A stretch of DNA of 63,920 nucleotides, the filler included, from Halocafeteria seosinensis (lineage: Eukaryota), in the NCBI GenBank assembly GCA_001687465.1. It is 4 parts of 4 records of this genome, joined end to end, with 100 filler letters (N's around TTAATTAATTAA, not from the genome) between each part and the next. Parts side by side here need not be neighbours in the genome. Positions count along the whole stretch, not along the records: positions 59,301 to 63,920 come from LVLI01000108.1; 3 more parts are not named here. One strand, 5' to 3'. Each line of letters starts with the position of its first letter. Within the stretch, counting starts at the first letter, position 1. A program made the translations under genes and the position numbers. Shown here piece by piece: positions 4,317-63,920 of this stretch. Below the pieces are notes generated by a model. It was not told where the DNA came from, searched no databases, and was given only the letters and a program-made list of their open reading frames with translations.

Positions 4317-7300
4317 ATGTGACAGATAGCCCACCGGCCGAATCCGAACGGGCTCGGTGTACGCTCCACCCACAGCACTGATTTTACCACGGCCTAAAAG
4401 TAGCAGATAGTATTCGCGTAGCCTTCACGAAACTATATTCCATATTCAGATGCACAACGGCATTCTACCATGTGTACCTCGCTTCTTTTCCCAAGCATCT
4501 ACTTGAAGTACTGTGAACTTCCAAACTACAAAAAAGGCTCTACGGGGATAACAATCTCGCTTCAATTCAAATTGTTCAATGCAATGAATGCTGTCTGGCA
4601 TTGATGGTGCAAGGGTTGTAAAGGAGCATGTTATTTTGTTCCCTTTGGTAGCTTCAGTTCTTTCTGTGTGTTGTTTCATAATACATTTACAGTAGGTTGT
4701 ATTAACCTGTCTGTGTAAGTGTATACAAACAGATGCTAGATAAAGTTTATTAACACCGTTTGTAGGAGACGATGCCGAAGAAAAGAGCTTCTAATACTAG
4801 TACGGCCGCTACAAGACGCCCCAATACCAGACAAGCAGCTAATGAGATCCGTCAGACCCAGAAAAGAGGCCGTTCAGGGGAATCGGGGACTCAAAAAGGG
4901 TCCGCGAAGGCATCGTACAACAAGCAACGGCAAGCGTCTACAGACACAACTGGTAGTGTGGCACAATTGGGACAGCAACATAAGGCTTGTGGACAACAGG
5001 CGTCTGCCGTGGCGAGCTCTTCCTCCGTGGAGGGGAAAGCGAGCGGCTCGTCGGCTTCCAGAGCGAAAAAAGGAAGGCCCAACGCTAGTAAAAGTGTACC
5101 GGAAGCCAATTACACCGGTAGTACCGCTAAAGGAGAACTAGCGATACCATCTTGGCCTACCCAGGAGGAAGAGGGGAATAGATTAAACCAAGAATATGAA
5201 GCTGAACTGGTACAGTCTCGTGGAAACTGTTCTAGCAGTGAACAATCGGGGACTGATGCAAGGCACTCTTCAGAGGGGGCTGATGACACAACGCCTGGCA
5301 GTGCGAGCAAGGATGATATGGGAGAGAGTAAGGAGATCATGATAGTAGAGAGAGTACTGTAGTGCGTATTTATGCTTGCAAACGCAGGCTTCTTCGAGTG
5401 GACGAAGCGAATGCTACCTGTGTTCAGAGTCCCAGTGCCGGAACAACAAAAAACGCTAGAGTTTTTGGAAGGAGTTGGATATGAATGGGGACACGATTCA
5501 TTGGCTACAAAAAAGGGAGCGAAGCTTATTTTCAAGAAATACATAAGCGACAAGGATGACCAAGTCCTTCTTGCATCCGCAGCCTATAATGCAAATATGG
5601 CGCATTCAGGTAGGTGAACGTCGGTAGTTTTTACCGTTGACTCTTGCTACTGGGGTTTTATTCGTCCTTCACCATAATGTTGTTTTGTCTTGTATTGCGT
5701 TGTTGCTTGTTTGCAGGAGGCGGCGGTGCGGCTTCAAGCTCTGCTGCTCCAGGTAAGTAGACACTCAAAACCGATAGCAGACGTTCCTGTGTGTGTATCA
5801 CTTTGTTGCTTGTTTGCAGGAGCCGGCGGTGCAAGCTCAAGTTCTGCTGCTGTAGGTAAGTGTTGTCTTGTCTTGTATTGCTTTGTATGCCTCGTCTTAG
5901 TCCCTTTGCTTGCAGCTGCCGGAGCGAGTAAGAATCTACGGGAAACAGATACAGACTCTGCACTGCAAGCATTTATAGAAGGCTTTTCTGCGGTGCGAAT
6001 GACGAACGCAGCGGCTAACGAACAATTATCCGCTGGTTGTGTGCTAACATTTCCAACAAAGTTATTTAACTCTGAAAACTTTACCGATAAACTGTATATT
6101 CGGCACACGTATATCGACGTAGCCCAATTGATCTTCTCGAATTACTATGCCAACGGAGACACGGCGATGCAGGCAAAGGCCCAAAATGCTCTGCAACACA
6201 TTGGATGCAGCTTAGACGCGGAAGAAAAGGATCTTCCGAAGACTTGCTTGATATTTAGTGGAAGCCCTGGAATCGGAAAATCGGCCTGTATTGCTTTTAT
6301 AGCGTTCGTCTGCAACAAAGCGAACATTCCATTTGCTTTGGTAGGCCACTCCACAGGATCTTTCGAAGGTCGGGCCGATTATGGAAACGACTATCGTGAT
6401 AAAATTTTTCTTCTAGACCATGATAATAACATGTATTTCGGGTGCAACACTGTCATTTTTACATCTCCGAATACAGAAAGACTAATACGTTGGAGAGACA
6501 TTGGTCCAGCACCAGCCGCGAACCAAATGATGTTCATGAACGTTTGGAGCAGTGATGAATTGAAGGATTTCGCAAAAAGTTGCTATACAGAAGAGCGCGT
6601 GGCTATGCTGGATGTGCTGTACATGCATTTGGGCGGAAGCCCTCGGCACGTGATACCGCCAGCGTGGGTGAAGAAGGACAAAATGCATGATTACATAGAG
6701 GAAACCATTGGGCCTAGACTAAACACGATTAAGGACGAGGATAGCTTAAATGGGGCACTTACTGGTGAACTTAAGAAAAGTGATGGGAAGATGTCTCATG
6801 TTTTGATTCACTATGTAACTCCCTTAGGGAAGAACGTTTGCAGCCACAAGGATCTAACTTACATGCCTGCCTCGTCGTACATAGCCAAGAAACTCGCTGA
6901 CAAAGCACAAAGGATGCTAGGTATGAAACGGATGTATTAATTTCTACTTCTTCAAAACAATCCAAAGGCGGCTGTTCTCCTTGGACGCCTATACGAACCT
7001 ATTGCTGTTGAACAACTGTGCTCTAAGTGACTTGCAATGGCCAAAAACAGGAAAGGCAGGTACCTAGGTGAACGCAAGCGCGCTCCTCCAGGTACATTGA
7101 AACCAGGTGGGGTGCCCGATAATGGATTTGTCCCTGTTGACTTTTTTGGCATTTCTGACTTGGGTAAAGAATCCTTAGTGAATGCCGGTGATGACGACTT
7201 GCTAATTCCTGGAGATAGTACTTTTCCAGTGGGTGACGTAGTTCGCCGAGGGATGCATCGTAGTTTTCTCGTGGATCTCTACCAAGCCACTGTGGCCCAT

Positions 7301-7662
7301 GAGCATCCAATTTCGTATCTCGGTCTACAGCAAATAGCTGAAGCCGTCCGCAGTGCTATGGGACTTCATGAGAATGCGTCAGTGGGCATTCGTTTATTCT
7401 TCTGCGTGCCTCCTGAACGCTACAGGCAGTTCAAAAAGCAAGAAGTAAAGGAAGGAACGGCGGTTGTTGAATGTCCCCCCCAACGTTGTTTTGGAGCAGT
7501 TTTGTCTAGAAGTACCAATACCCAATAGTCCGATTCTAGACAAGGCAAGTCTCTAGTAATAGAAAACCTTCAATATATGTCTACAACACACACGGGACAA
7601 AACGCCCGCTCGTCGTTAAGGGGATGCGGTCAACTCCCCGGCCGGTGGGCTATCTGTCACAT
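4317..7662. mobile_element. Candidate TIR-bounded element carrying a Crinkler-like gene
   Basis: ATGTGACAGATAGCCCACCGGCCG (4317-4340) is the exact reverse complement of CGGCCGGTGGGCTATCTGTCACAT (7639-7662). One gene lies between them. Outer 8-mers ACACACAA and AGGCACAA match at 6/8. Confidence 0.55.
4772..7528 (+). pseudogene. Crinkler/RHS (CR)-type P-loop NTPase plus PD-(D/E)xK-like nuclease, spliced, with two in-frame stops
   Basis: Motifs IFSGSPGIGKS (Walker A), MNVWSSDEL, LGGSPRHV, SHVLIH, ASSYIA, GRLYE, FPVGD...LYQATVAHEHPI, LFFCVP..Y..F..Q. Frame-preserving introns 5328-5387, 5610-5716, 5753-5819, 5856-5915. Stops TAA 6938-6940 and TGA 7028-7030 lie in an otherwise continuous frame. 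Confidence 0.75.
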
Positions 7663-45377: not shown

Positions 45378-47105
45378 TTATCTACCACCTTTTTGCGAGT
45401 TTTTGCTTTTTACTGACATACGGATGTCACAATAGGTCTTGAGAACATCCTCTAGTTGATGGTTAGGCAATACGGTGGCCGTCCCGTAAATACCTGCAGT
45501 GCCCTCCGCCTTGGTATTGGGATTCTGTCTAACTGTCTCAACGGCCTCCTTGAGATCTTGGATCCACTCTTCTTTAATGTTGGAGGTTGTTTCTGCAATG
45601 CATATGTGGGCTGCAGGAGGAAGCTGTAGAGGATTTACAGACCAACCTTTCTTCGTCATTTCGCTGGTAATCGTGTAGATATCTAGGGTGTCACTGGTGA
45701 AGCTGACAATGCTGGCATCACAGTCTGTGATTGTTCGAAGATCAGGAATCTTGTTAATTTCTCGACAGAGCCAAGTGTGAGTGTCATGAATGTGTCGAGC
45801 AACGTTCTGATACCCCTGTTTACCGAGGTGCATCATAGTACCCCAAGCGGCTGCCATGAGTGCTCCCGACCTCGCTCCTTGAATAGTCGATGTGACGTAG
45901 AACCCACCTGCCCAGTCTGTGATCCCATGAATTGTAGCTCTCCTGTACGCATTATCCCGGAAAACTACGAAGGATGCTCCTTTGGAAGCGAGGCCGTACT
46001 TGTGCCCGTCACATGAAATTGATGTAACGCCAGGGACCTCGAAGTCGAAGTTCCTCTCAGGCGGGAGGAGTCCAAGTTGTTTCAGCGGGGAAAGAAGAAA
46101 GCCACCAAGACAGTTATCCACATGAAGCGGGACATTATGTTTTACAGCTAGGTTTCCTAACGCGGGAATCGGATCAATGACACCGTGGGGGAAGGTTGGA
46201 GCAGAAGCAAAAATTGCTATGGTGTTCTTGGTGATATGCGGTTCAACATCCTCTGGATGAAGGCGCAAGTCGCCCTTGAGATCCACTTTCTTCAGTTTGA
46301 TGCCTAAGTAGCCACAAGATTTGTCTATGGCGGGATGAGCGGCCGCGTTACAGATGATTTCCGGTGAGTAGTTACCATACTGAGTGCGCGCGTGGTTCCG
46401 ATAACCAAGGGTCGCCAAAAGGATTGATTCCGTACCTCCAGATGTGAATAGGCCTGCACTATTTGCGTCTCCATTGAGCATAGTTTTTACCATGTGAATC
46501 ATTTCAGCTTCGAACTTGCGCACAGCCGGAAACACTCCAGGATAAAGTGCATTGGTGCAATTGTAGGTCGCCAGCAACTCGTTTTGAAGATTGGTAAGAA
46601 TTCCACCTGTATCCGCGGCCGCCAACTATATAACCAATAATACGATATGTGCTGCAATGTCGATAAACATACCATCTGCATGATAGATCCCGCCGAATTT
46701 CTTGCCCTGGTTTTCCCCGTCATCTCGTTCCTTGAGTTCTTTGGCTTTACCAAGCACTTCGGAATACGGTATTCCCGTGTCCGGAAGTTCAAAGTTCGCT
46801 TCAGGATCACCTTCACCCAGTAAATCTTGCTCAAGTTGATCGAAAGTTTTCTGTTCCTCGGCTTCCACCACTCCTCGTAATCCAGGAACTGCTTTGGCTC
46901 CCGCAATTAAACTTCCCACAGTGCTCTTCACAATTTGTCGTGGACCCATTCGGTACAATTTATACGTCGCTCCGCCCACCACCAGCAATGCGAGGGCGTG
47001 TTCGACCTGCCGGGCGGCGATCGAATCGGGGGGACAGCCTAAATGCCTGAGAATTCTGGAAAAGGAAGCGTAAGACTGGTTGGGTAACCCACTGGAGGAC
47101 GACAT
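45378..47105 (-). CDS. SGPL1: Sphingosine-1-phosphate lyase, copy 1 (two exons)
   Basis: N-terminal TM; TSGGTESI, FPHGVIDPI, HVDNCLGGF, SISCDGHKYG. Confidence 0.9.
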
Positions 47106-47322
47106 TGTTACGTATTTTGGGTGTCACTGCCGTCGGGAAGCAAACCACAGGACTAAAAGTAGGACTTTAAACAAACTGGAAATTTCAAGGAATATCTGCA
47201 CAATGCTGAGATGTAGTAAATTGTATAATTACATGTGTATACCAAGGTGGCGGCTAAATAACTTAGCCGCCGTACTCCAAGGCTGCTTCAGTGAACCTTG
47301 AACTTGTTGATGGTGGTACCAG

Positions 47323-49078
47323 TTAAGAGTTCTTGGCCTTCACTTTAACCCGAATGTCACAATACGTCTTCAGGACATCTTCAAGCTGGCTGTTCGGTAA
47401 TACAGCTGCAGTGCCATAAATACCGGCGGTGCCCTCTGCTTTTACATCGGGATTTTGCCGAACTGTTTCAACGCAATTCTTAAGATCCCGAATCCAATCA
47501 TCCTTGATATTCGTAGTGGTTTCCCCTATACAGATATGCGCCGCAGGTGGAAGTTGCAACGCAGTTACACTCCAACCCTTCTTGGTCATTTCGCTGGCGA
47601 TTCTGTAGATATCTAGCGTGTCACTGGTGAAACTAACGATACTCGCATCGCAATCGGTGATTGTTCGAAGATCAGGAATCTTATTGATCTCGTTGACGAA
47701 CCATTTGTGAGTATCCTGCATGTGAACAGCAACGTTTTGGTATCCTTCTTTACCGAGATGCATCATGGTAGCCCAGGCTGCAGCCATAACAGCCCCCGAC
47801 CTAGATCCTTGTACGGTCGACGTAACATAGAAACCTCCGGCCCAATTAGTTATTCCATGAATTGTAGCCCTGCGGTACACATTGTCTCGAAACAGCACGA
47901 ACGATGCACCTTTTGTCGCTAAGCCGTATTTGTGTCCGTCACAGGAAATTGAAGTCACTCCCGGCACCTCGAAATCGAAGTTCTTTTCTGGTGGTATAAG
48001 ACCCAGTTCTTTGAGGGGTGAAAGAAGGAAACCTCCCAGGCAGTTATCCACATGCAGAGGCACTTTATACTTCAAGGCTAATTGGCCCAAGGCAGGAATT
48101 GGGTCGATCACGCCGTGAGGGAATGTCGGAGCGGATGAATATATGGCAATGGTGTTCCTGTTGATGTACGGTTCTACTTCCTCGGGATGAAGCCTCATAT
48201 CACCTTTAAGATCCAATTTCACTACTTTCACGTCCAAATAGCCACATGCCTTATCCAAGGCTGGGTGGGCGGCAGCGTTGCATATGATTTCCGGAGTAAA
48301 GTTCCCATACTGAGTGCGGGCGTAATTCCGGTATGCAAGAACCGCCAGGAAAATGGACTCGGTCCCTCCAGAAGTATATAGCCCCACACTGTCAGCATTC
48401 CCATGTAACATAGTCTTCACCATGGTAATCATTTCGGCCTCAAACTTCCGAATAGCCGGGAATACTCCAGGATAGAGGGCATTGGTGCAGTTGTACATTG
48501 CAAGCAACTCATTTTGGAGCCGAGTCAGGATCCCACCTGCGTGAACAACGAGTGCAACCATTGAAAACGCTGCTAAGAAGAAAAGGAAAAACAAGAAGAT
48601 GATATCTGAGTTTACATACCATCCACGTGATAGATTCCTCCCCATTTCTTGCCCCCATTGTTGTCATCGTCTCGCTCCTTCAGTTCCTTCGCTTTTTTGA
48701 TCAATTCATCATAGGAGACACCTTTTATCGGGAGCTCAAAGTTGGCATCAGGATCTCCATCTCCCAGGAGATCCTGCTCCAATTCATCAAAGGTTTTCTG
48801 CTCTTCGGCCTCGACAACATTTTTAAGCCCCGGAACCACTTTGGCCACTCCAATCACACTTCCTACGACGCTCTTCACAAAGTTTCGAGGGCCACTGGCG
48901 CCCATTTTGTACAGCTTGTACGATGCTCCTCCCAGAGCTAAGAGCACATAAATATGCTCTAAACGTCTGATTGTGGTAGAATCAGGAGGAGACGCTAGAC
49001 ACTGCAAAGAGCTCCATAATGAGCAAACCCCTGTCGGCAGACGCTCCCAATTTCCCGTGGAAGTAGAGGGTTCCAGCA
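47323..49078 (-). CDS. SGPL1: Sphingosine-1-phosphate lyase, copy 2 (two exons)
   Basis: Same motifs and same intron position (after GGIYHxD) as copy 1. Confidence 0.9.
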
Positions 49079-50419
49079 TATTTGCTACCTCTCTCTCTCT
49101 CTCTCCAAGAGACCAACAGGCGTTCACAAACTGTAGCTTGAATTGAATAAATGAGAAGCAACAAAACCTCTGGGGGATGCGAAATACAAATATTTAAGGG
49201 TATTATGGCGGCTATTCTCTGTAGCCGCACCGCCTGTTGCCCCGAGGGACACGGACACGGGAAAAAGAGTTCAAGAAGGGAATCTAACCAAAAATGGCAT
49301 TTACATAGTTTTTCGTACTCGTTAACTGAGAATGTGATTGCTAGTTCCACGTTGGCGAAGGAAGGGCAACACAGAGTGATTTGACGTAAAATTCCACCTG
49401 AATTGGAATTCCAGTTCATCCCAGACCAGAAACAGCAGAACGATAAGTCGACATACCGTCGGACAGGCAAGGATTGAGCTATCACTGTGCTGTCTGCGAT
49501 TATCAAAAATGTTTATTTAGATGGGCTGCTGGTTTCGCCTAGGTGTCGGTGAAAGAAGCCACTGAGTACCCGGATGTCAGCGAACCCCCGTACTCACTGG
49601 AATGGGAACGTCTAGCTGCTCTTGATCACCACGAGGACCACAAACTGCGATGAGCATGACCCCTACCAACAGCAGTATCCATCCCAAAGTGATCGAAGAT
49701 GATCTATGCTTTGGGGCTAGTGCCATGGTAATTAATTGGGCTGTTAGCTTTACGGTAAACACAAGTTGGTTATGCTGCACTGGACGGGTATAGCCTACGT
49801 CTCACAACAAATCTTACGCTAGGATAAATACAAATACATACGCTTTATTCTGATATGTACTTCACGCACACAGTTCACGTGACAAGAATATATCACGTGC
49901 GTGTGCGGTGTGTCGGATGTTCAGACAGAAGCAGCTCCATCAGCGTACCGTAGCGTCTCTTGCTATAAACATGTAGCTTGGACAGCGAATCGTCCCCATT
50001 CCGCAAGTTGGCATGGTCCATCAAGATGACCTGCTGCTATCGTTTTCGGTCTTTCGCGCAAGTCCCAACTGTTCAGATTGTCACTTGTGAAGCTGCACCC
50101 GCGCGCCAAATCGTAGACACCACCATAATGTACGCATGAGTTGTTAGCTGATGTAAGCAGTGCCTTGTAGTAAGCTCAGATATTAATTGGATATCCTCAA
50201 ACAAATACCTGTACTTGAAAGTGCAAGAGTCTGAATGAATAGATCCTGGACGAAGTTGGAATTCAAAGAATAACGCGCGCGCAAACCCATTTTACCTCCC
50301 CGGCTCTATTGCACGCGATAGGCGCTGTACCATAGGATTAGGCACCCTGTCCGGCTAGTCTAAACACAGGGAAACAAGTGAGCTTGGAGTTGATCGAAAG
50401 TGTTATCGTCTAGGAGGAG

Positions 50420-55916: not shown

Positions 55917-58900
55917 TCATTGTTTCGGAGACGATGCATTCTTTTTCCAGGGCCTTCCCGTTCTGTTCCTGCGTCGCCCCCAAATATTTTTATCTGGCCG
56001 AAATTTTCTGGCGGCTCTAGCTGCACTAGCTACTGGGGAGTTGGGCCGCATCACTTGGTCTGCTGGTAGTTCCGCCATCTGAACCTTCTGCTTCGGTTCT
56101 TCTGGCGGATCCACACGCATTTGTTTAAATTCCACCTTACTGTTGTTCGTTAGCCTTCTAGTTCTTTGAGAGTTATCATCACAAGGTGTTCGGAGTCCCC
56201 CTTCACTGGCAATGCTTGGTAGCTGCTCGTGTTGCTTCGATTCTTCGTCATGTGGAAGATCACGTCCATTTCTTGTTCTGTCGCTCGATTCGGATACATT
56301 GATTCGAATTATCGGAGGCGGCTCTGCAAGCACTGACGCTCTCCATTGAAGCAATTTCAATGCAGCCCGGTGGCTAGTACTTAGTTGAGAGCTAACAATT
56401 TCGTTGGTGTTGGTGATTGTTGAATCCTCTGTACCACCCGAAGGACTTCTCAGTGAGACAATTCTCCAAGCATTGGGGTGGCTCTCCACGCTCCTGTCAA
56501 ATTCAACGAATGTGAGTGGTTCGACCGAGCCTGACCGTGCCGACATGCTTTCAGCGTCCGTGGGAGGAGGGGCCAGAGGGTTGATGCCACGCACTGGGTT
56601 TATACTATCCCGCTCACTGCGTTCAGTACCGGGACTGAGTAACATTCCCCGATGCTCCAGTCTGCAGTCTCTGTTGTCCGGATTCGCGACTAGCCTCATT
56701 ACTTTGATAGGTCTCCCCAACTTTTCCGCATATATCTGCTTAATGTCATCTGCTCGGGCAGAGTTACTGCGGTTATACCGTCTCCTAACGAAAACAAACA
56801 CCAACATCACAATCAAAGCCAGAAGCAGTATGCCGGGGACACCAGCAGAAACTGCCATCCTGCCTATTTCTTGGTTTGCATGACCCGCCGGATTTGGCTG
56901 GCAGGATGCATCAGTATCAGTGGCACTAGTTCCGCTTCTGCAAGAGATGCACCGTGTTTGTGATCCGTCGGGAACCGCACCTTGCCCACACGAGTAACAT
57001 ACTGAATCATTTGATCGTGATACTTCGTACGGAGCGCAGGAGATACAAGCCGACCGCTGACTGTTGGGGATGCTACCACTACTGCACAAACTGCATTCTG
57101 CATCAATATTGCTAGCGACTTCGTACTCGGAACAGTTGAAGCAGCTATCTTGGGTCGCCGAAGGAACGTAGCCGTCACCGCATGTTTGGCATTCTGAATG
57201 TCTCTCCGTTGCAAACTGATGTGGTTCACATTCATGGCACTCACTCTGATGTGAATTCGGCACGACTCCTTTGCCACAGGAAGTGCAGATAGCGTCTTCC
57301 TTACCGGAAATTCGATTTGGTGCGCACTGGCGGCACGATGCTGCAGATTCATCAGGGACCACTCCGACACCACACCTGTAACATGCAGCATCAGTTCCTG
57401 CAGCCACCTCAAATCTCCTGCAAGATACGCACTCTGCTTGATGAGTATCTGGAACAAAACCAGGCTGGCACGTTTTACAAAATGCATCCTTAGCTGATGC
57501 CACTTCGAAGTCGAGACAGTGCTCACATCCATCCTTGTTCAAGTTAGGAACCTTGCCATCACCACAGAGACTACACCCGATGGCACCACTTTCGGAAAAC
57601 AAATGAGACGGGCAATCCTCACAAACACCAGTGGAAGCGTTAGCAAATTGACCTTTGCCACACTCGTAGCACACAGGCTCCAGCGGCCCAGAACCACTAT
57701 TTTGAGGGCACGTCTCGCACTCTCCTCGATCTTTGCTGGGGACCCTACCAGCTCCACAAGACCGACAGATCGTATCCGTGACAGTCGCGATATAATTCCC
57801 AAAACACTGTACACAAGCACTGCGATCCCCGTTTGGAACGCTACCCAGTCCGCAAGCACGGCACTGCTCATCCCCTACAGCCGCATATTCCCAGGCACTA
57901 CAATTTTGACAATAGTCTTTGGTAGAAGACGGAATTGTTCCAACTCCACAATCATGACATTCAGCATCCGTTGATCCGGCCATCTGAGACTCCGCACAAG
58001 ACATACACTCTCCTTGATTGGAGGTTGGCACCATGCCTTTCTCGCATACTCGACAGGTTTCATCGTTTCGACCAGCAACTTTGTAATCAAGACATGCCTC
58101 GCATCCATTTCGTGTAGCATTGGGAATCATTCCAGGACCGCAACGGTAACAAATGTCGTCTTGATCTCCAGCATACATGTTATCCGTACACGATTTACAC
58201 CCAGCTTGATCTCCATTGGGTACTTTCCCGGGACCACACATCTGACAAACACTGTCCGTCGAGGAGGCCACGAGGTGCGGAGGGCAAGTAGTACATTCGC
58301 TCTGCTCATCATTGGGAACTTTACCCTCGCCGCAGGCATGACATTCAGCATCGTCTTGAGTTGCGTATTCCCAGTTGCTACATGTTTGGCATTCACCGCT
58401 CCAGGGACCGGGAACCTGCCCAGGGTCGCACGTGGAACAGCCTTCATCGTCCTCCGCAGCTACCTGATTCTTTGAACAAGTTCGGCAACTACCTTGGGTC
58501 TCTGTAGGAACCCTCCCACGTCCGCATGACCGGCACATATAGTCAGTCGTATGTGCAATTTGATGCACTTCGCAAAGCTCGCAGTCGCTTTTGACATTGT
58601 TCGGCACCTTCCCTATACCACAGCTGTGGCATTCGTCGTCGCCTTCAGTGGCATATTCCCAGGCACTACAATTTTGACAATAGGCTTTGGTAGAAGACGG
58701 AATTGTTCCAACTCCACAATCGTGACATTCAGCATCCGTTGATTCGGCGATCTGAGACTCCGCACAAGACATACACTCTCCTTGATTGGAGGTTGGCACC
58801 ATGCCTTTCTCGCATACTCGACAGGTTTCATCGTTTCGACCAGCAACTTTGTAATCAAGACATGCCTCGCATCCGTTTCGCGTAGCATTGGGAATCATTC

Positions 58901-59200
58901 CAGGACCGCAACGGTAACAAATGTCGTCTTGATCTCCAGCATACATGTTATCCGTACACGATTTACACCCAGCTTGATCTCCATTGGGTACTTTCCCGGG
59001 ACCACACATCTGACAAACACTGTCCGTCGAGGAGGCCACGAGGTGCGGAGGGCAAGAGGTGCATTCGCTCTGCTCATCATTGGGAACTTTACCCTCGCCG
59101 CAGGCATGACATTCTTTATCTTGTTCAGTAGCAAACTCCGACGCACTACAATTTTGACAATAGTCTTTGGTAGAAGACGGAATTGTTCCAACTCCACAAT
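55917..59200 (-). CDS. Cys-rich repeat type I membrane protein; 5' end lost in the gap
   Basis: Dozens of CxxC..G.VP....C units, a TM helix (VPGILLLALIVMLVFVFV-RRR) and a cytoplasmic tail. Internal near-exact duplication at 768-bp offset (identical ORFs 57935-58117 and 58703-58885). Confidence 0.88.
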
Positions 59201-59300: not shown

Positions 59301-59657
59301 CAGCAAGACGGCGATGGTAATGTCGTAACAGGTAGTGGAAGAGGACACCAGAACGTTCAAAATATGGTAAATTTAATTAAACAGGCTAAGAAGAAGAGAC
59401 GAGCAGGTGGAGCTAAAAATCCTTTTAAAGAAATTAAGAAAGGAATAGACTTTTTCAAGAAGCTAGGAAAGAAAGGTAATACTAAGAATAATGTAGGTAA
59501 AGACCATTTTGACGACGAAACCATTGATGGTTTATTGCTAGCTACACCCGAGGAGAAGCGAAAACTTAAGAAACAACAACAAAAGAGAAAAAAGAAAGGT
59601 AAAGGAGGACAGAAGAAACAAGTAGCCCAAGAGAAACTAAAAAAAAAGCTTAGATAA
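59301..59657 (+). CDS. Lys-rich viral core-like protein, 5'-truncated
   Basis: Frame open from the contig start (QQDGDGNVVTGSGRGH...). Very basic, with Gly motifs VTGSG, RAGG and GKGG. Confidence 0.6.
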   Translation, partial: QQDGDGNVVTGSGRGHQNVQNMVNLIKQAKKKRRAGGAKNPFKEIKKGIDFFKKLGKKGNTKNNVGKDHFDDETIDGLLLATPEEKRKLKKQQQKRKKKGKGGQKKQVAQEKLKKKLR

Positions 59658-59681
59658 GAATATAAACTAACAAACCGAGTA

Positions 59682-59837
59682 ATGGAGGTAGTAACATACA
59701 TTATGATATGTCTTTCAAGTATTATAGCCACCGGAACCCCTGTATTATATAAATACATACGAAAATCTCGTTGCCAGAGTCAATGTTCACATGACGGTCA
59801 GAAATGCGATTGTAAAAAATCAGCGGATACTGTATAA
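59682..59837 (+). CDS. 51-aa single-pass membrane protein with a KSRC Cys-rich tail
   Basis: MEVVTYIMICLSSIIATGTPVLYKYIRKSRCQSQCSHDGQKCDCKKSADTV*. Fills the gap between neighbours and ends 5 nt before the protease ATG. Below the ORF-track cutoff. Confidence 0.7.
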   Translation: MEVVTYIMICLSSIIATGTPVLYKYIRKSRCQSQCSHDGQKCDCKKSADTV

Positions 59838-59842
59838 GAAGA

Positions 59843-60397
59843 ATGAAGATAGACAAGGCTGAAATAAATAGGTTGATGAACATAGCACTGAGTGAATCTC
59901 AGTTACAGGAATATACCCCTCATAAAGTACCAATAATTAGTTACAATCAGATTTATGATAAGACGATTCCTGCGTGGTTAAAGCCAGAGAAAGCATTGAT
60001 AATGTTATATTTACAAGAAGCAAGCGTGGGGCATTGGACGTGCTTAATAGAGCATCCAGACACATTTGAATATTTTGATAGTTACGGACACGCACCCGAC
60101 GAACCATTGACTTGGAATTCAGAAGCTAAGAATATTCAGCTAGGGCAACCTTCACCTTATATATTGGATAGCATCCCTACATTATCTAAACCATTGATTT
60201 ATAATGACAAAGTACTTCAATTGAAGAAGAATTGTAGTCAGACCTGCGGTAGGTACGTTTTACTGCGGGTAGTATTAAAAGACTTGACACTGGAGGAGTT
60301 CATTAACTATTTAAAGTATGTAAGAGACGAATATGACCTGAAGAACTTTGATAGAACAGTGAGCTTTTTAACAAGTGAACTTGACGAACAACAATGA
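59843..60397 (+). CDS. Viral maturation cysteine protease (adenain/Ulp1 clan CE, virophage type)
   Basis: LYLQ...GHWTCL (His), EYFDSYG (Asp), LQ...TCGRY (Gln, Cys); 184 aa, intact. Confidence 0.9.
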   Translation: MKIDKAEINRLMNIALSESQLQEYTPHKVPIISYNQIYDKTIPAWLKPEKALIMLYLQEASVGHWTCLIEHPDTFEYFDSYGHAPDEPLTWNSEAKNIQLGQPSPYILDSIPTLSKPLIYNDKVLQLKKNCSQTCGRYVLLRVVLKDLTLEEFINYLKYVRDEYDLKNFDRTVSFLTSELDEQQ

Positions 60398-60678
60398 ACT
60401 TTGAGAAGCTAAGGGATAAAATTAAATTAATTTGTCCCTTTACTACATAACTAGGATTTCTACCCTTCTTACGCAGGAGGGGGACAGGGACAAAAAATTT
60501 AGATATTTGTATACATATTTACATAATATATATACACTCTTTTTTAGTTTTTGTATATATGAAAGAGATATATTTTTTTGTCTTTTTTGTCCTTTTTGTC
60601 CCCAACTAGGGTTTATATCGCAATTACATAGGAGGGCAGAAATTTATTTTTCTGCCCTCAATCATTATTTTCAGCCCC
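60381..60678. repeat. About 300-bp diverged direct repeat, copy 1 (origin-like, with hairpin)
   Basis: Colinear with 62739-63029. GGGACA/TGTCCC-type motifs flank a TA-rich core. Hairpin GAGGGCAGAAA-n6-TTTCTGCCCTC at 60632-60659. Confidence 0.85.
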
Positions 60679-60714
60679 AATAAATATAATGAAGAAGAAA
60701 CTAAGTGTATTAGT

Positions 60715-61961
60715 TTACTTAGGGTTTCGTCCAGTATTTCTACTACTTCCAGAAGCACTTGTTGGTTGTTCAGGTGTACTTAGACCTACAGCAGAGGCAC
60801 TCTTCGTTCTTTCTGAATTAAGTTTCTGAAGTACTTCTCTGATACAACTTGCTTTTCCCTCAAAGGTGGGCATATCAATAAGGTCTTTCCGAATGCTTTC
60901 AATAATATTAATCTGCGGATAAGAGCGCATGTCGCAGTTGCTAACAAGGGAGTGTGGCATGCGGAACATACCTCCGTTTTGAAATTTTCATCAATGGAGT
61001 CTTCACTCTCGCTCAAAATAAAACCGGACAGACAGTTAATGTTGTTAATGTTATCCTCAAATCGTCTAACGTTAAACAACTGCTCCACAGGCGTTACAAT
61101 CTCTGAAGAGATTGTAATATACTTACCGGCACACTCCAGCCATTTTCGTTCATCTTCGCCAAGTACTTTATCACCCGCGTGCTCAATCGCTTTGTTCAGT
61201 AATTTTTCAACATCGCTCTCATCTTCACCAACTTCAGTGCTTTCACCACCACCGCTATCATCAATATGTTCACCAAGTTCAGCACCTTTACCATCATCAA
61301 TATCTTCACCAAATTCAGCTTCATTACCACCACCAATATCTTCACCAAATTCAGCTTCATTACCACCACAGTTCTTGACTTTCTCAATATCTTCAATACT
61401 CTTGATGCGTTTGCTGAGCAAAGCAATATGACCAAACGATTTTTCGTATTCATCCACGTAGATTTCTGCTTCTAACGCTTGATTTTCCTTGCGTTTTTTT
61501 GACTTCTCCCAACTTCTCCGTTGTTTTTTGTCCTCCGGGGGATTGTTCAAATCGTCTCTCAAGGAACAATAACGTCTTTTCTTGTTAATGTAATCAGTTG
61601 TGCTCTGCTTTAACTGGGAAAGACCGCCCAAAAAGACGCACAGTGCGTCCGGAGAAACAAGTATGTTGGGAGGCACAGCACCTACCAAAAGCTTATGAAC
61701 ATCGTGGCTTGTAACCCCCTTGTTATTCATAGCAAGTACCCTTTTTAGCTTTGAGACTTGGAAGTTAAACTCCAATCTCTTCTTGAGAACGCTTTTTTTG
61801 GCGTTGTTTCTCAACAACGTGGGTAAGTCACACTCATTGGTAGTGGCTTCAACAATCTGCCGGTCTTGAAGGTACTTAGCTTCATCAACGTCTTTACGAG
61901 CTAGTTTGATTGAAGCGCGAAACTCTTCATCCTCCCCTTCATCAATGTTTCTCTTAGTCAT
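60715..61961 (-). CDS. Unknown acidic protein with 12-aa repeats and one predicted spliceosomal intron (60913-60971)
   Basis: ATG 61961 (MTKRNID). GTATGT...CCGCAG, 59 nt, joins ENFKTE to INIIESIRK in the frame of ORF 60715-60969. GGNEAEFGEDI repeats. Confidence 0.7.
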
Positions 61962-61968
61962 TTCTTCT

Positions 61969-62065
61969 TCCCGCACCGAACCCAAGAACAAGAACAAATA
62001 GGAGTTCTCTGGAACAAATGTTTTCCCGCACAGAACAAGAACAAATAGGGGTTCTTTGGAACAAA
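61969..62065. repeat. Tandem duplication of about 45-55 bp upstream of the 61961 gene
   Basis: TTCCCGCAC..AGAACAAGAACAAATAGGRGTTCTYTGGAACAAA occurs twice. Confidence 0.8.
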
Positions 62066-62738
62066 AGGCTTTCAGCGATACTTACGATAGAACCAAACCA
62101 CAATTACAATGAAACCACAGTACAGTTAGACCCCCAATGTAAATCCCCAGTTAAATTAGTGAAGAAAAATGAAGGAAACACGTTTTTTGCTTTGGCTTTC
62201 TCAAGGACCGGAGTTTAGGCCGATATTATCAATCCCAAATTATTGAACCAACTACTTTTTTTCTATAGGAAACCAGCTCTTTGAGCAGTTTAACCGCCCA
62301 TACCACCCGAAAACTGTCTAAAAACCGTCACTTATCTCCGTTCAACCCGAATATACACGATACAAAAGTCTCTCTACAACCAAACAAATAACATAACGAG
62401 CTTACCCACTTCATTTTAGCAAGGTTCCGACAAGTCCGACCTCAAAACTCGCTTTATAAAGACACCAACGGGGCATCTAGACTTCAACAGAGCCTCAACG
62501 ACTTAACCACCCCAATATACACTATGAAGGGAACCATATATTACCCTATAACTTACCATACTGCTAGAATATCATATGGACGATAACATACTGAAAAAGG
62601 AGGGCTGTAGATGCTGTAATTAATGAGGTATGAGTATCAACCTGTTTTGAAGCTCCTTTGGAGCCGATGGGGCACACAGTAGGGACACAGGAGACGATAT
62701 ATAGCAAGTTTGAGGAGTGAGCTTTTCAAAGAGGGAGA

Positions 62739-63029
62739 TTGACGAACAATGAACTTTGAAGAAACTAGGGGATAGAATTAAATTAGTTTGCCCTTTCCTA
62801 CATAGTAGGGATTTTTACCCTTCTTATATAGGGAGGGGCAAGGGCAGAAAAAATCAATATTTATATATATATAAAAACATAGTAAGCATATACTCTCTTT
62901 TAGTTTGTATATATATAATGTAAATTTTTTTGTCCCTTTTATCCCTTTTATCCCTAAATAGGGTTTATACCGCAATTACATAGGAGGGCAGAAAATTATT
63001 TTCTGCCCTTTAAATTATATTTTAGCCCC
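62739..63029. repeat. About 300-bp diverged direct repeat, copy 2
   Basis: Starts TTGACGAACAATGAACTTTGA like copy 1, has the same motif order, and keeps the hairpin AGGGCAGAAAA-tta-TTTTCTGCCCT. Confidence 0.85.
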
Positions 63030-63295
63030 GAAAGCCATTATACACCAACGAGAGAGCGACAACTGAGGGGAGGGGATTAATCTTTTGATGGTCACCGAAG
63101 AAGAGCACGACAATTTAGCGATGAATTACATTGAAAATTACACCTACAATTTAGCGATGAATTTAATAAAAATTACACTGAAAATTACACCTATAATTTA
63201 ACTTATAGCCGGCATTTTTTATTATTTTTTATTAAATAAATCCGGCATTTTATATTAAAATCCGGCATAAATTATTATATGCTGGTTAAAATGCC

Positions 63296-63345
63296 CTATC
63301 ACCCGCCAACGTGAAATCAATTGATTTCACGTTGGCGGGTGATAG
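63296..63345. repeat. Perfect 50-bp palindrome
   Basis: CTATCACCCGCCAACGTGAAATCAA|TTGATTTCACGTTGGCGGGTGATAG, with no spacer and no mismatch. Confidence 0.97.
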
Positions 63346-63920
63346 ACGAACTCGGATATCTGGTATGGCGGGTAATACTCGGAGAGGTATGTTGGCACGC
63401 CAAACCCGCTCTGTTGTTGTGCATAATGTTTCTGTCCTGCAGAAAGATAGTTACTACACTTTTTCAAAAGTTGGAATCAAGCGTAGTTTGATGTGCTATG
63501 AACAGCTACAAATCCCTATAGTGAAGGCGAAGCGCAGTATCAATTTTGCATCACTATGAAGGTATAGCCAGCAAATCTTAGAATGCGACTGCCTTTCTGG
63601 GTCCTCATCCCGGCTACGTGGCAAAGTTAGACTGGGGAGCGGTCAATGGGAGAACGCCATCCCTGCGAGGTTAAAGTGTCCGAAGTAGGGCTTAGAGTAC
63701 GTATCGGGGAGGTACAACAGCCGATAGCACATCGTACTGGCACTGTGTGAAAGCCTTCTTTCACTCTTGCACCGGAACGACAGGTAGTAGAGAATAGGAA
63801 CATCTCAATACCCCTTAGACGATGCGTCGTATGTCCACTGCTTTCACATGTGAGTCATTACATACCTAACGGGCATATTACACAACTCTGCGTTCTTGTG
63901 CGACGCTCCCTGTGTATAGA

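Follow-up and report, generated by a model that had tools for sequence, protein, structure and literature searches.

A probable endogenous virophage end within a spliced host gene of Halocafeteria seosinensis

Introduction

Endogenous virophages can provide inducible protection from giant viruses, and every host that carries them points to a giant virus yet to be discovered. In Halocafeteria seosinensis, palindrome-tipped endogenous virophages have been described; the available part of the preprint reports nested, fragmented and transposon-interrupted copies with very low expression (bioRxiv 10.64898/2026.07.28.741278). The MCP is the main demarcation criterion for Maveriviricetes, to which the packaging ATPase and cysteine protease are added, with a penton gene and a length of 15–45 kb being expected but not required, and with dependence on a giant virus as a further characteristic (PMC9952930). 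Polinton-like viruses (PLVs) of the Gossevirus group also possess a cysteine protease together with virophage core genes (PMC10120064). Here, a locus in the H. seosinensis assembly GCA_001687465.1 is compared with these systems.

Results

Organization of the locus

The window is a stretch of 63,920 nucleotides, filler included, in which positions 59301–63920 correspond to LVLI01000108.1. The contig starts at 59301 directly behind an N-linker. The region 59301–60397 (36% GC, 97% coding) is the only part of the locus that is both compact and viral. It comprises three forward-strand reading frames: a Lys-rich ORF (59301–59657) whose 5′ end is open into the assembly gap and whose first ATG is at 59364, a 51-amino acid predicted membrane protein (59682–59837), and a 184-residue clan CE cysteine protease (PRO; 59843–60397). 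The block is followed in order by an incomplete and diverged duplicate of the terminal repeat's inner portion (60358–60688), starting within the last protease codons, a 2-kb segment of 41% GC (60689–62664), a TIR-like non-coding terminal repeat of ~630 bp (62716–63345), a 50-bp palindrome at its tip, and host DNA. The GC content is 34% over 62665–63345 and rises to about 47.5% past 63345, which bears out an earlier observation of host-like DNA on the same contig. The initial annotation also portrayed the cluster as AT-rich, intronless and compact. This description fits 59301–60397 but fails beyond, where the 41% GC segment includes a predicted intron and the terminal repeat is non-coding.

The locus very probably represents the right-hand terminus of an endogenous Maveriviricetes-type virophage that interrupts an exon in a spliced gene of the host, is one of several diverged copies in the genome, and has a rearranged end. 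No MCP, penton or packaging ATPase gene was found in the window, which includes only ~4 kb of one element end running into the gap. The pPolB and rve integrase genes of a Polinton or adintovirus would likewise lie past the gap. Rfam searches of 59301–63920 returned four matches, all far under the gathering score.

The protease and its relatives

The protease reading frame is free of stops and frameshifts and carries His-64, Asp-79 and Cys-135, with Gln-126, in agreement with the intact His-Asp-Cys enzyme recognized initially. His-64, Gln-126 and Cys-135 are invariant among 118 aligned relatives, and Asp-79 is nearly so. The AF2 model (pLDDT 95.6) matched Sputnik V9 (UniProt B4YNE9) best in Foldseek searches, with a TM-score of 0.88, an E-value of 1.5e-15, an rmsd of 2.2 Å and 30% identity. 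Sputnik V9 was also the best named protein among the 50 fold matches listed, which included no mavirus protein by name. In contrast, TM-scores were 0.56 or less for adintovirus adenains, 0.41 for SENP5, 0.30 for Ulp1, 0.45 for Den1 and 0.37–0.40 for the adenovirus protease. The protein scored 145 bits against a profile built from 58 proteases of loci with Sputnik-type MCP, and its top Atlas clusters were 94–100% viral with Preplasmiviricota commonest (score 0.98). By fold, profile and Atlas clusters, the protein therefore qualifies as the virophage-like cysteine protease of Maveriviricetes (PMC9952930), as judged with the profile made in this analysis rather than with official HMMs.

Related proteases in IMG/VR were accompanied by a penton cluster in 64 of 80 loci and by an MCP cluster in 53 of 80, and representatives of these clusters matched V18-19 and Sputnik_MCP of Pfam. 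When loci of at least 12 kb were considered, 46 of 53 had one of the two clusters. IMG/VR may over-represent virophages relative to PLVs. Close relatives of the protease (over about 42%) with DNA context were not found in IMG/VR or JGI contigs. A quick tree, constructed without Polinton, PLV or Ulp1 outgroups, placed the protease in a six-member clade of its own; for the five proteases nearest to it, no context is known. Judged from sequence and predicted fold, the enzyme is of virophage type, not Polinton or cellular, as the fold is nearest to that of Sputnik V9 and Sputnik-type capsid genes occur at most of the long relative loci.

It is exceedingly improbable that this reading frame is a cellular gene of Ulp1/SENP type, or one for a bacterial deubiquitinase, situated in AT-rich host DNA. 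A PDB fold search did place such enzymes first, though no virophage protease is among the PDB matches listed, but the superpositions gave TM-scores of 0.28–0.53 and rmsd values of 5–15 Å. Sequence searches of PDB found no matches, and a profile search found nothing below E 0.27. Moreover, two of the three hits among 27 candidates in prokaryote genomes adjoin virophage MCP and penton genes. Neither the protease nor the first three of its homologues matched any Pfam family, Peptidase_C48 included; Peptidase_C48 matched weakly in three of the 118 relatives. NCBIfam and PHROGs also lack a family for the protease, and tblastn against INPHARED gave no match. The grouping with cellular Ulp1/SENP proteins that the initial annotation had held out as damaging to its proposal did not emerge by fold, and the match of the modelled structure to Sputnik V9 effectively refutes a cellular origin.

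It is very unlikely that the locus is instead the end of an integrated protease-bearing PLV, such as a Gossevirus, or of a Polinton. The lack of a capsid gene in the window and the location of the protease in a clade of no known context would accommodate this explanation, as would the cysteine protease and Sputnik-like modelled MCP of Gosseviruses (PMC10120064) and the terminal palindromes that the accessible preprint text reports for one PLV subtype also (bioRxiv 10.64898/2026.07.28.741278). However, the fold similarity to Sputnik V9 well exceeds that to adintovirus adenains, a comparison that argues against a Polinton-type adenain on structure rather than on a reference phylogeny, and the 145-bit score was obtained against MCP-linked virophage proteases. 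Furthermore, the same preprint text indicates that PRO is absent from the PLVs in the most similar system described. The proposal of an endogenous virophage or Polinton-like virus made initially is thus upheld for an integrated virus of this supergroup, but the class can be narrowed to the virophages, with Polintons and most PLVs set aside.

The adjacent reading frames

The product of the Lys-rich ORF is 25% Lys with several GG/GxG motifs, as had been remarked from the sequence. It includes an amphipathic 18-mer following a GG, the helical moment of which was equalled in 12 of 1000 shuffles. The ORF matched nothing in Pfam or PHROG and gave a single sub-threshold match in NCBIfam (E 0.13). Against a profile built from the tails of 44 virophage MCPs it yielded no score (479 of 500 shuffles were equally high), but the variability of these tails, noted in the available text of PMC6048507, leaves an MCP-tail identity as a bare possibility. 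We infer that the ORF may specify a virion core protein or a capsid tail cleaved by the protease.

The 51-residue protein has a hydrophobic stretch (best 19-residue Kyte-Doolittle mean 1.77) followed by YK..R..S.C, consistent with the small TM protein recorded previously. It showed a weak likeness to a profile built from 22 members of a family of small membrane proteins encoded on virophage contigs (6.6 bits; four of 1000 shuffles were as high). The same family is encoded directly upstream of the protease in loci L039, L043, L060 and L065.

Diverged copies and the orphan gene

Public contigs of three runs, X1, X2 and X3, all from one study, were compared with the locus; X1 may be the source of the window itself. 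X1 is DNA-like, with a host depth of 77–128 in 29 of 30 bins. X2 and X3 are RNA-like, as GT..AG introns are skipped. The depth of the three-gene block in X1 was 870–1980, although contig depth does not equal copy number, and 105 of 174 X1 contigs of the block were under 99% alike, with 54 of 174 under 95%. The comparison with host depth advocated by the initial annotation therefore places the protease block at several times host level, in diverged copies. Among the runs listed as containing the stretch, none was recorded as RNA. X2 and X3 contain no contig over 59301–60686, and this absent cover carries no weight on expression.

The 41% GC segment includes an orphan gene on the reverse strand (60715–61961) with predicted exons at 61961–60972 and 60912–60715. 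These are separated by a 59-nt GT..AG intron (60971–60913; phase 0) whose ends resemble those of the host. An RNA-like contig of a diverged copy ceases to match at 60914, as splicing predicts, and the gene is probably spliced. A search with the first exon alone, against 3502 candidates of similar length, found no homologue. The repeats listed include no inverted pair at the borders of the segment and a TIR transposon thus is without support. That a virophage lineage acquired a spliced host-type gene beside the terminal repeat, which was then copied along with the element, is doubtful.

A short forward-strand interval (62665–62703) next to this segment probably represents the 3′ remnant of a further reading frame, with a stop near 62703. 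The same loose end occurs just before 62665 in X1 and X2, pieces begin at 62665 in X2 and X3, and the frame cut at this position likely continues in other copies. During assembly, fragments from different copies may have been attached to a genuine junction or to a solitary palindrome scar, in which case no single molecule would have the protease followed by the partial repeat, the orphan gene, the terminal repeat and host DNA. This short-read mosaic is a possibility to be taken seriously, albeit an unlikely one. The family is multi-copy and diverged, 60533–60686 is uncovered in X1, no contig extends across the stretch, and a mere 30 letters bridge the join at 62665. Nevertheless, a hole in these contigs proves nothing, and a separate X1 contig (depth 151) links the end of the protease (60404) to the insert (60698), with a short side of 50 letters; the protease and the insert accordingly are neighbours in at least one variant. 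A mosaic is compatible with a virophage, and the viral nature of the parts would hold.

The terminal palindrome and the host junction

The palindrome (63296–63345) has 25-bp arms that are 100% complementary, compared to a next-longest arm of eight in the window and a maximum of nine in 200 shuffles. It ends the terminal repeat beside host DNA, which is the arrangement that typifies palindrome-tipped endogenous virophages. A 16-nt piece of the palindrome matched nine viral contigs, which is estimated to be about chance level for a collection of such size. The direct repeat between 60358–60678 and 62716–63029 is 324 bp and 78% identical and, like the palindrome, went unmentioned in the initial annotation. 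The partial copy contains a hairpin with an 11-bp stem (60632–60659), whereas the terminal repeat, of which the window has one end only, possesses a 13-bp-stem hairpin (62983–63011) and short sub-terminal direct repeats (63110–63277). The second repeat copy was considered as a second protease gene but was rejected: the likeness is limited to the last ~12 codons and stops are in frame.

The host flank (63346–63920), recognized by GC content and contig depth, comprises the remainder of the interrupted exon, a predicted 56-nt intron (63387–63442) on the forward strand, and an exon from 63443. Loose ends before 63377 in X1 and 63441 in X2 and X3 show that the host gene runs on upstream without virus. 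Positions 63350–63376 are 27 extra bases between two copies of a 7-mer, forming a short filler partly like the viral tip. Flank depth is 370–670 in the RNA-like runs, in which the flank appears as part of a spliced transcript. The flank itself is present at two to three times host depth, and the empty form therefore may be a paralogue instead of the other allele. An X1 contig spans 63321–63499 without differences at a depth of 54, approximately half host depth as expected of a one-allele insertion, with just 25 letters on the virus side, which is below the 31-letter bar. None of the public contigs reaches from the terminal repeat into the flank.

A free virophage that replicated in culture and was co-assembled with host DNA would produce high depth in the DNA-like run, but is highly improbable here. 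The copies are diverged, the junction contig is at half host depth, two other flanks adjoin the palindrome (contig loose ends at 63288 and 63295), and the end looks rearranged.

Discussion

The properties of the locus favor an integrated virophage end. The initial annotation proposed that the capsid and integrase genes are located beyond the contig break, but the present copy may be a remnant in view of its apparently rearranged end. The anatomy suggests as much: a 2.3-kb stretch of partial repeat, host-type spliced orphan gene and gene stub parts the protease from the true end, and the copy probably has recombined or is decaying. In an active copy, by extension from the available description of mavirus, particle maturation would involve cleavage of the capsid protein by the protease behind GG/GxG motifs, with the Lys-rich protein as one DNA-binding substrate of this kind (PMC6048507). 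The element may be silent until a giant virus infects the cell, and the palindrome could adopt a hairpin structure to prime replication of the genome after its excision, by extrapolation from the accessible preprint text (bioRxiv 10.64898/2026.07.28.741278).

As far as that text extends, this kind of element is already described and the very family to which it belongs probably is in print; the locus consequently adds little. The new host-virus pair mooted in the initial annotation is unlikely, as the available preprint text describes elements of this kind that show the same GC contrast and bear palindromes at their ends (bioRxiv 10.64898/2026.07.28.741278). Two details may have specialist use. 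The insertion that breaks an expressed host exon, with its filler partly like the viral tip, bears on integration of palindrome-tipped elements. The second detail is the probably spliced orphan gene within the viral end. If this gene were cargo of the lineage, integrated virophages would bring intron-containing genes that are transcribed by the host nucleus while capsid genes are quiet.

Clan CE proteases, TIRs and integration in eukaryotic genomes are shared with Polintons, adintoviruses and Gossevirus-group PLVs, but the adintovirus adenain is structurally distant from the protease examined here, which instead has the same predicted fold as Sputnik V9. The protease gene adjoins the terminal repeat, whereas in many IMG/VR loci it is upstream of the penton and MCP genes. 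In the available text, the EMALEs and mavirus of Cafeteria burkhardae are similarly low-GC virophages with TIRs of 0.2–2.3 kb and insertions often in exons and near repeats; the main text of the EMALE paper contains neither 'palindrom' nor 'hairpin' (PMC8547959). The PRO of mavirus also cuts after GG/GxG motifs, as stated in the accessible part of PMC6048507. The available text on the H. seosinensis virophages makes no mention of a spliced orphan gene within an element end. Nevertheless, compared by description, those elements match the locus in the presence of PRO, in GC content (about 35% for virus and 47% for host, against 34–36% and about 47.5% here), in TIRs averaging 808 bp (~630 bp at the one end seen here), and in a tip palindrome that is 52 nt in subtype 5 and 50 nt here (bioRxiv 10.64898/2026.07.28.741278).

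Anatomy of the Element

N-linkers join the four contigs that make up the window; the last contig begins at 59301, and the element is readable from this position rightward. Host genes upstream in the window have 47.6% GC, and the interval 59301-60397 has 36% GC and is 97% coding. Its genes are a Lys-rich ORF that runs off into the gap at its 5′ end, an ORF of 51 aa that includes a hydrophobic stretch, and a protease of 184 aa. A 324-bp stretch that starts inside the last protease codons has a second copy at 62716-63029 (78% identity), and folding predicted a short GC-stem hairpin that is kept in both copies. A hairpin polyadenylation signal has been reported for Sputnik genes (PMC6723459); that the hairpins in the repeat copies might act likewise is only a guess by analogy. 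Between the two copies lies a 41%-GC segment carrying a minus-strand gene. The final 630 bp of the element (62716-63345) are non-coding with short direct repeats, and the tip is a perfect 50-bp palindrome (63296-63345) with an arm of 25 compared to a longest arm of 9 among 200 shuffles. Beyond the palindrome GC returns to 47.5%. A 56-nt piece of the sub-terminal repeat (63133-63188) was also observed mid-contig in a 1826-nt contig of the RNA-like sequencing run X3, where the sequences flanking it are unrelated.

The Protease Is of the Virophage Type

Word searches recovered three relatives of the protease (54, 32, and 42%), and a profile built from these retrieved 3138 proteins with E no higher than 0.001. 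An alignment combined the window protein with 117 relatives (118 sequences), most of them the similar-length sequences among 150 matches listed; in it, residues H64, Q126, and C135 do not vary, and D79 hardly varies. The structure model was confident (pLDDT 95.6), and its best viral fold match was Sputnik V9 (TM 0.88, E 1.5e-15), followed by five nameless entries (TM 0.83-0.86). The adintovirus adenain scored TM 0.56 against the model, and matches in the PDB were generic clan CE enzymes (TM 0.28-0.53). In IMG/VR, 133 loci encode a protease relative, of which 80 were kept for neighborhood counts: a penton cluster was present in 64/80, a major capsid protein (MCP) cluster in 53/80, and an ATPase cluster in 41/80. 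The penton-cluster and MCP-cluster representatives, one each, matched Sputnik Pfam families. Across 149 loci, some duplicated between collections, MCP was found in 78 and penton in 103; one or the other was present in 46 of the 53 loci of at least 12 kb. Against a profile built on 58 MCP-linked proteases, the window protease reached 145 bits. In a quick tree with 136 rows and no outgroups, it fell in a six-member clade (SH-aLRT 100) whose other members are environmental proteins without known gene context. Overall, the protease is of the virophage type. Among the three genes required for membership by PMC9952930, the protease was the one found in the window, which holds only one end of the element.

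Two contigs filed in bacterial MAGs (L159:3160-7138 and L160:4033-8722) carry protease, penton, and MCP genes of virophage type consecutively and therefore apparently are virophage genomes binned with bacteria. Separately, a virophage-type protease domain is fused within five proteins of 780-1400 aa (P0017, P0037, P0046, P0052, and P0078), some of which contain many GG sites and a G-H-S-L-G motif that presumably is lipase-like.

Small Genes Beside the Protease

The 51-aa protein matched the profile of a small membrane-protein family weakly (6.6 bits, a score reached by 4 of 1000 shuffles). This family occurs 22 times in the 149 protease-bearing loci and is directly upstream of the protease in four. 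Its members (L039:8855-9310, L001:1046-1243, and 20 more ORFs) show a hydrophobic stretch followed by R.RS.CCG; the family is unnamed, and the one member tested had no match in Pfam. In the Lys-rich protein, a GG is followed by an amphipathic 18-mer whose helical moment was equalled in 12 of 1000 shuffles; the protein gave no score against an MCP-tail profile. The mavirus protease is reported to cleave the capsid tail after GG or GxG, and this tail has been proposed to bind the genome and predicted to form an amphipathic helix (PMC6048507). By analogy, therefore, the Lys-rich protein may be a protease substrate.

Probable Integration and Copies

Public contigs of three sequencing runs from one study (X1, X2, and X3) were compared with the window. 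Over 16.4 kb of host sequence, the X1 contigs are long and unspliced, with a depth of 77-128 in all but one of 30 bins; contigs of X2 and X3 skip GT..AG introns of 64-185 nt. Across the element, X1 depth was 870-1980 for the three viral genes, about 100-400 for the insert (60689-62664), and 540-1350 for the terminal repeat; these are summed depths and no measure of copy number. Of the 174 X1 contigs on the element, 105 were <99% alike. The pattern of depth and divergence is consistent with a family of multiple, diverged copies.

One X1 contig covered 63321-63499 with zero differences at a depth of 54, but fell below the bridging threshold because its virus side is only 25 letters. Among 18 of the 52 loose ends, those before 63377 (X1) and 63441 (X2, X3) revealed a flank that runs upstream into host sequence, which joins the window exactly at 63346. 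The RNA-like form of the flank lacks the predicted intron 63387-63442. Thus, the virus probably splits an exon of a gene that is transcribed and is itself present at 2-3 times host depth. The uninterrupted form lacks 27 bases of the window (63350-63376), which are flanked by a repeated 7-mer and include an 8-mer shared with the palindrome arm; these bases may be repair filler. Two further flanks are indicated by the loose ends at 63288 and 63295, where, as aligned, the palindrome arms would be longer by 8 and 1 base, respectively. The element is most likely a real end of an integrated virophage, and this end probably is rearranged.

The Insert and Its Orphan Gene

The minus-strand ORF of the insert (61961-60786) contains a 59-nt phase-0 GT..AG stretch (60971-60913) whose ends resemble those of host introns. 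In the RNA-like data, a contig from a diverged copy loses its match at 60914, as would be expected from splicing. Neither a homolog, among candidates of near length and with the first exon only, nor a family in Pfam, NCBIfam, or PHROGs was found for this gene. In another X1 variant, at depth 151, the end of the protease (60404) is connected to 60698; the protease and insert are thus neighbors in more than one form. Positions 60533-60686 of the window's own form have no X1 contig cover. Possible readings of the insert are cargo, DNA of the host or of a transposon within a decaying copy, and, in part, an assembly mosaic. No report of introns in endogenous virophages was found by title or abstract opening, a search too thin for absence to be claimed.

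Host Genes Elsewhere in the Window

Host ORFs with a P-loop (5678-6937 and 7031-7525) presumably are akin to CRN/RHS-type NTPase-nuclease genes. A tandem pair of gene copies, 72% identical, at 45381-49193 presumably encodes enzymes resembling the sphingosine-1-phosphate lyase type. A long host ORF with Cys-rich repeats and a predicted membrane anchor (55917-59200) is broken off by the gap adjoining the element. Dispersed, nearly identical duplications were observed at 1320-2232/8570-9467 (96% over 913 bp) and, inverted, at 1-298/27856-28153 (93% over 298 bp).

Comparison with Known Endogenous Virophages

Endogenous virophages have been reported in many protists (PMC10120064, PMC8547959), and the element is of a known kind. 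One preprint describes 36 complete and 18 fragmented virophages of 35% GC in a 39-Mb genome of 47% GC, with terminal inverted repeats of mean length 808 bp and, at their tips, palindromes that are proposed as replication primers and measure 52 nt in one subtype (10.64898/2026.07.28.741278). It also describes transposon insertions in the virophages, very low expression, and Polinton-like viruses without the cysteine protease. The figures for the window agree with those of these virophages, and therefore the family of the element probably is already catalogued among them.
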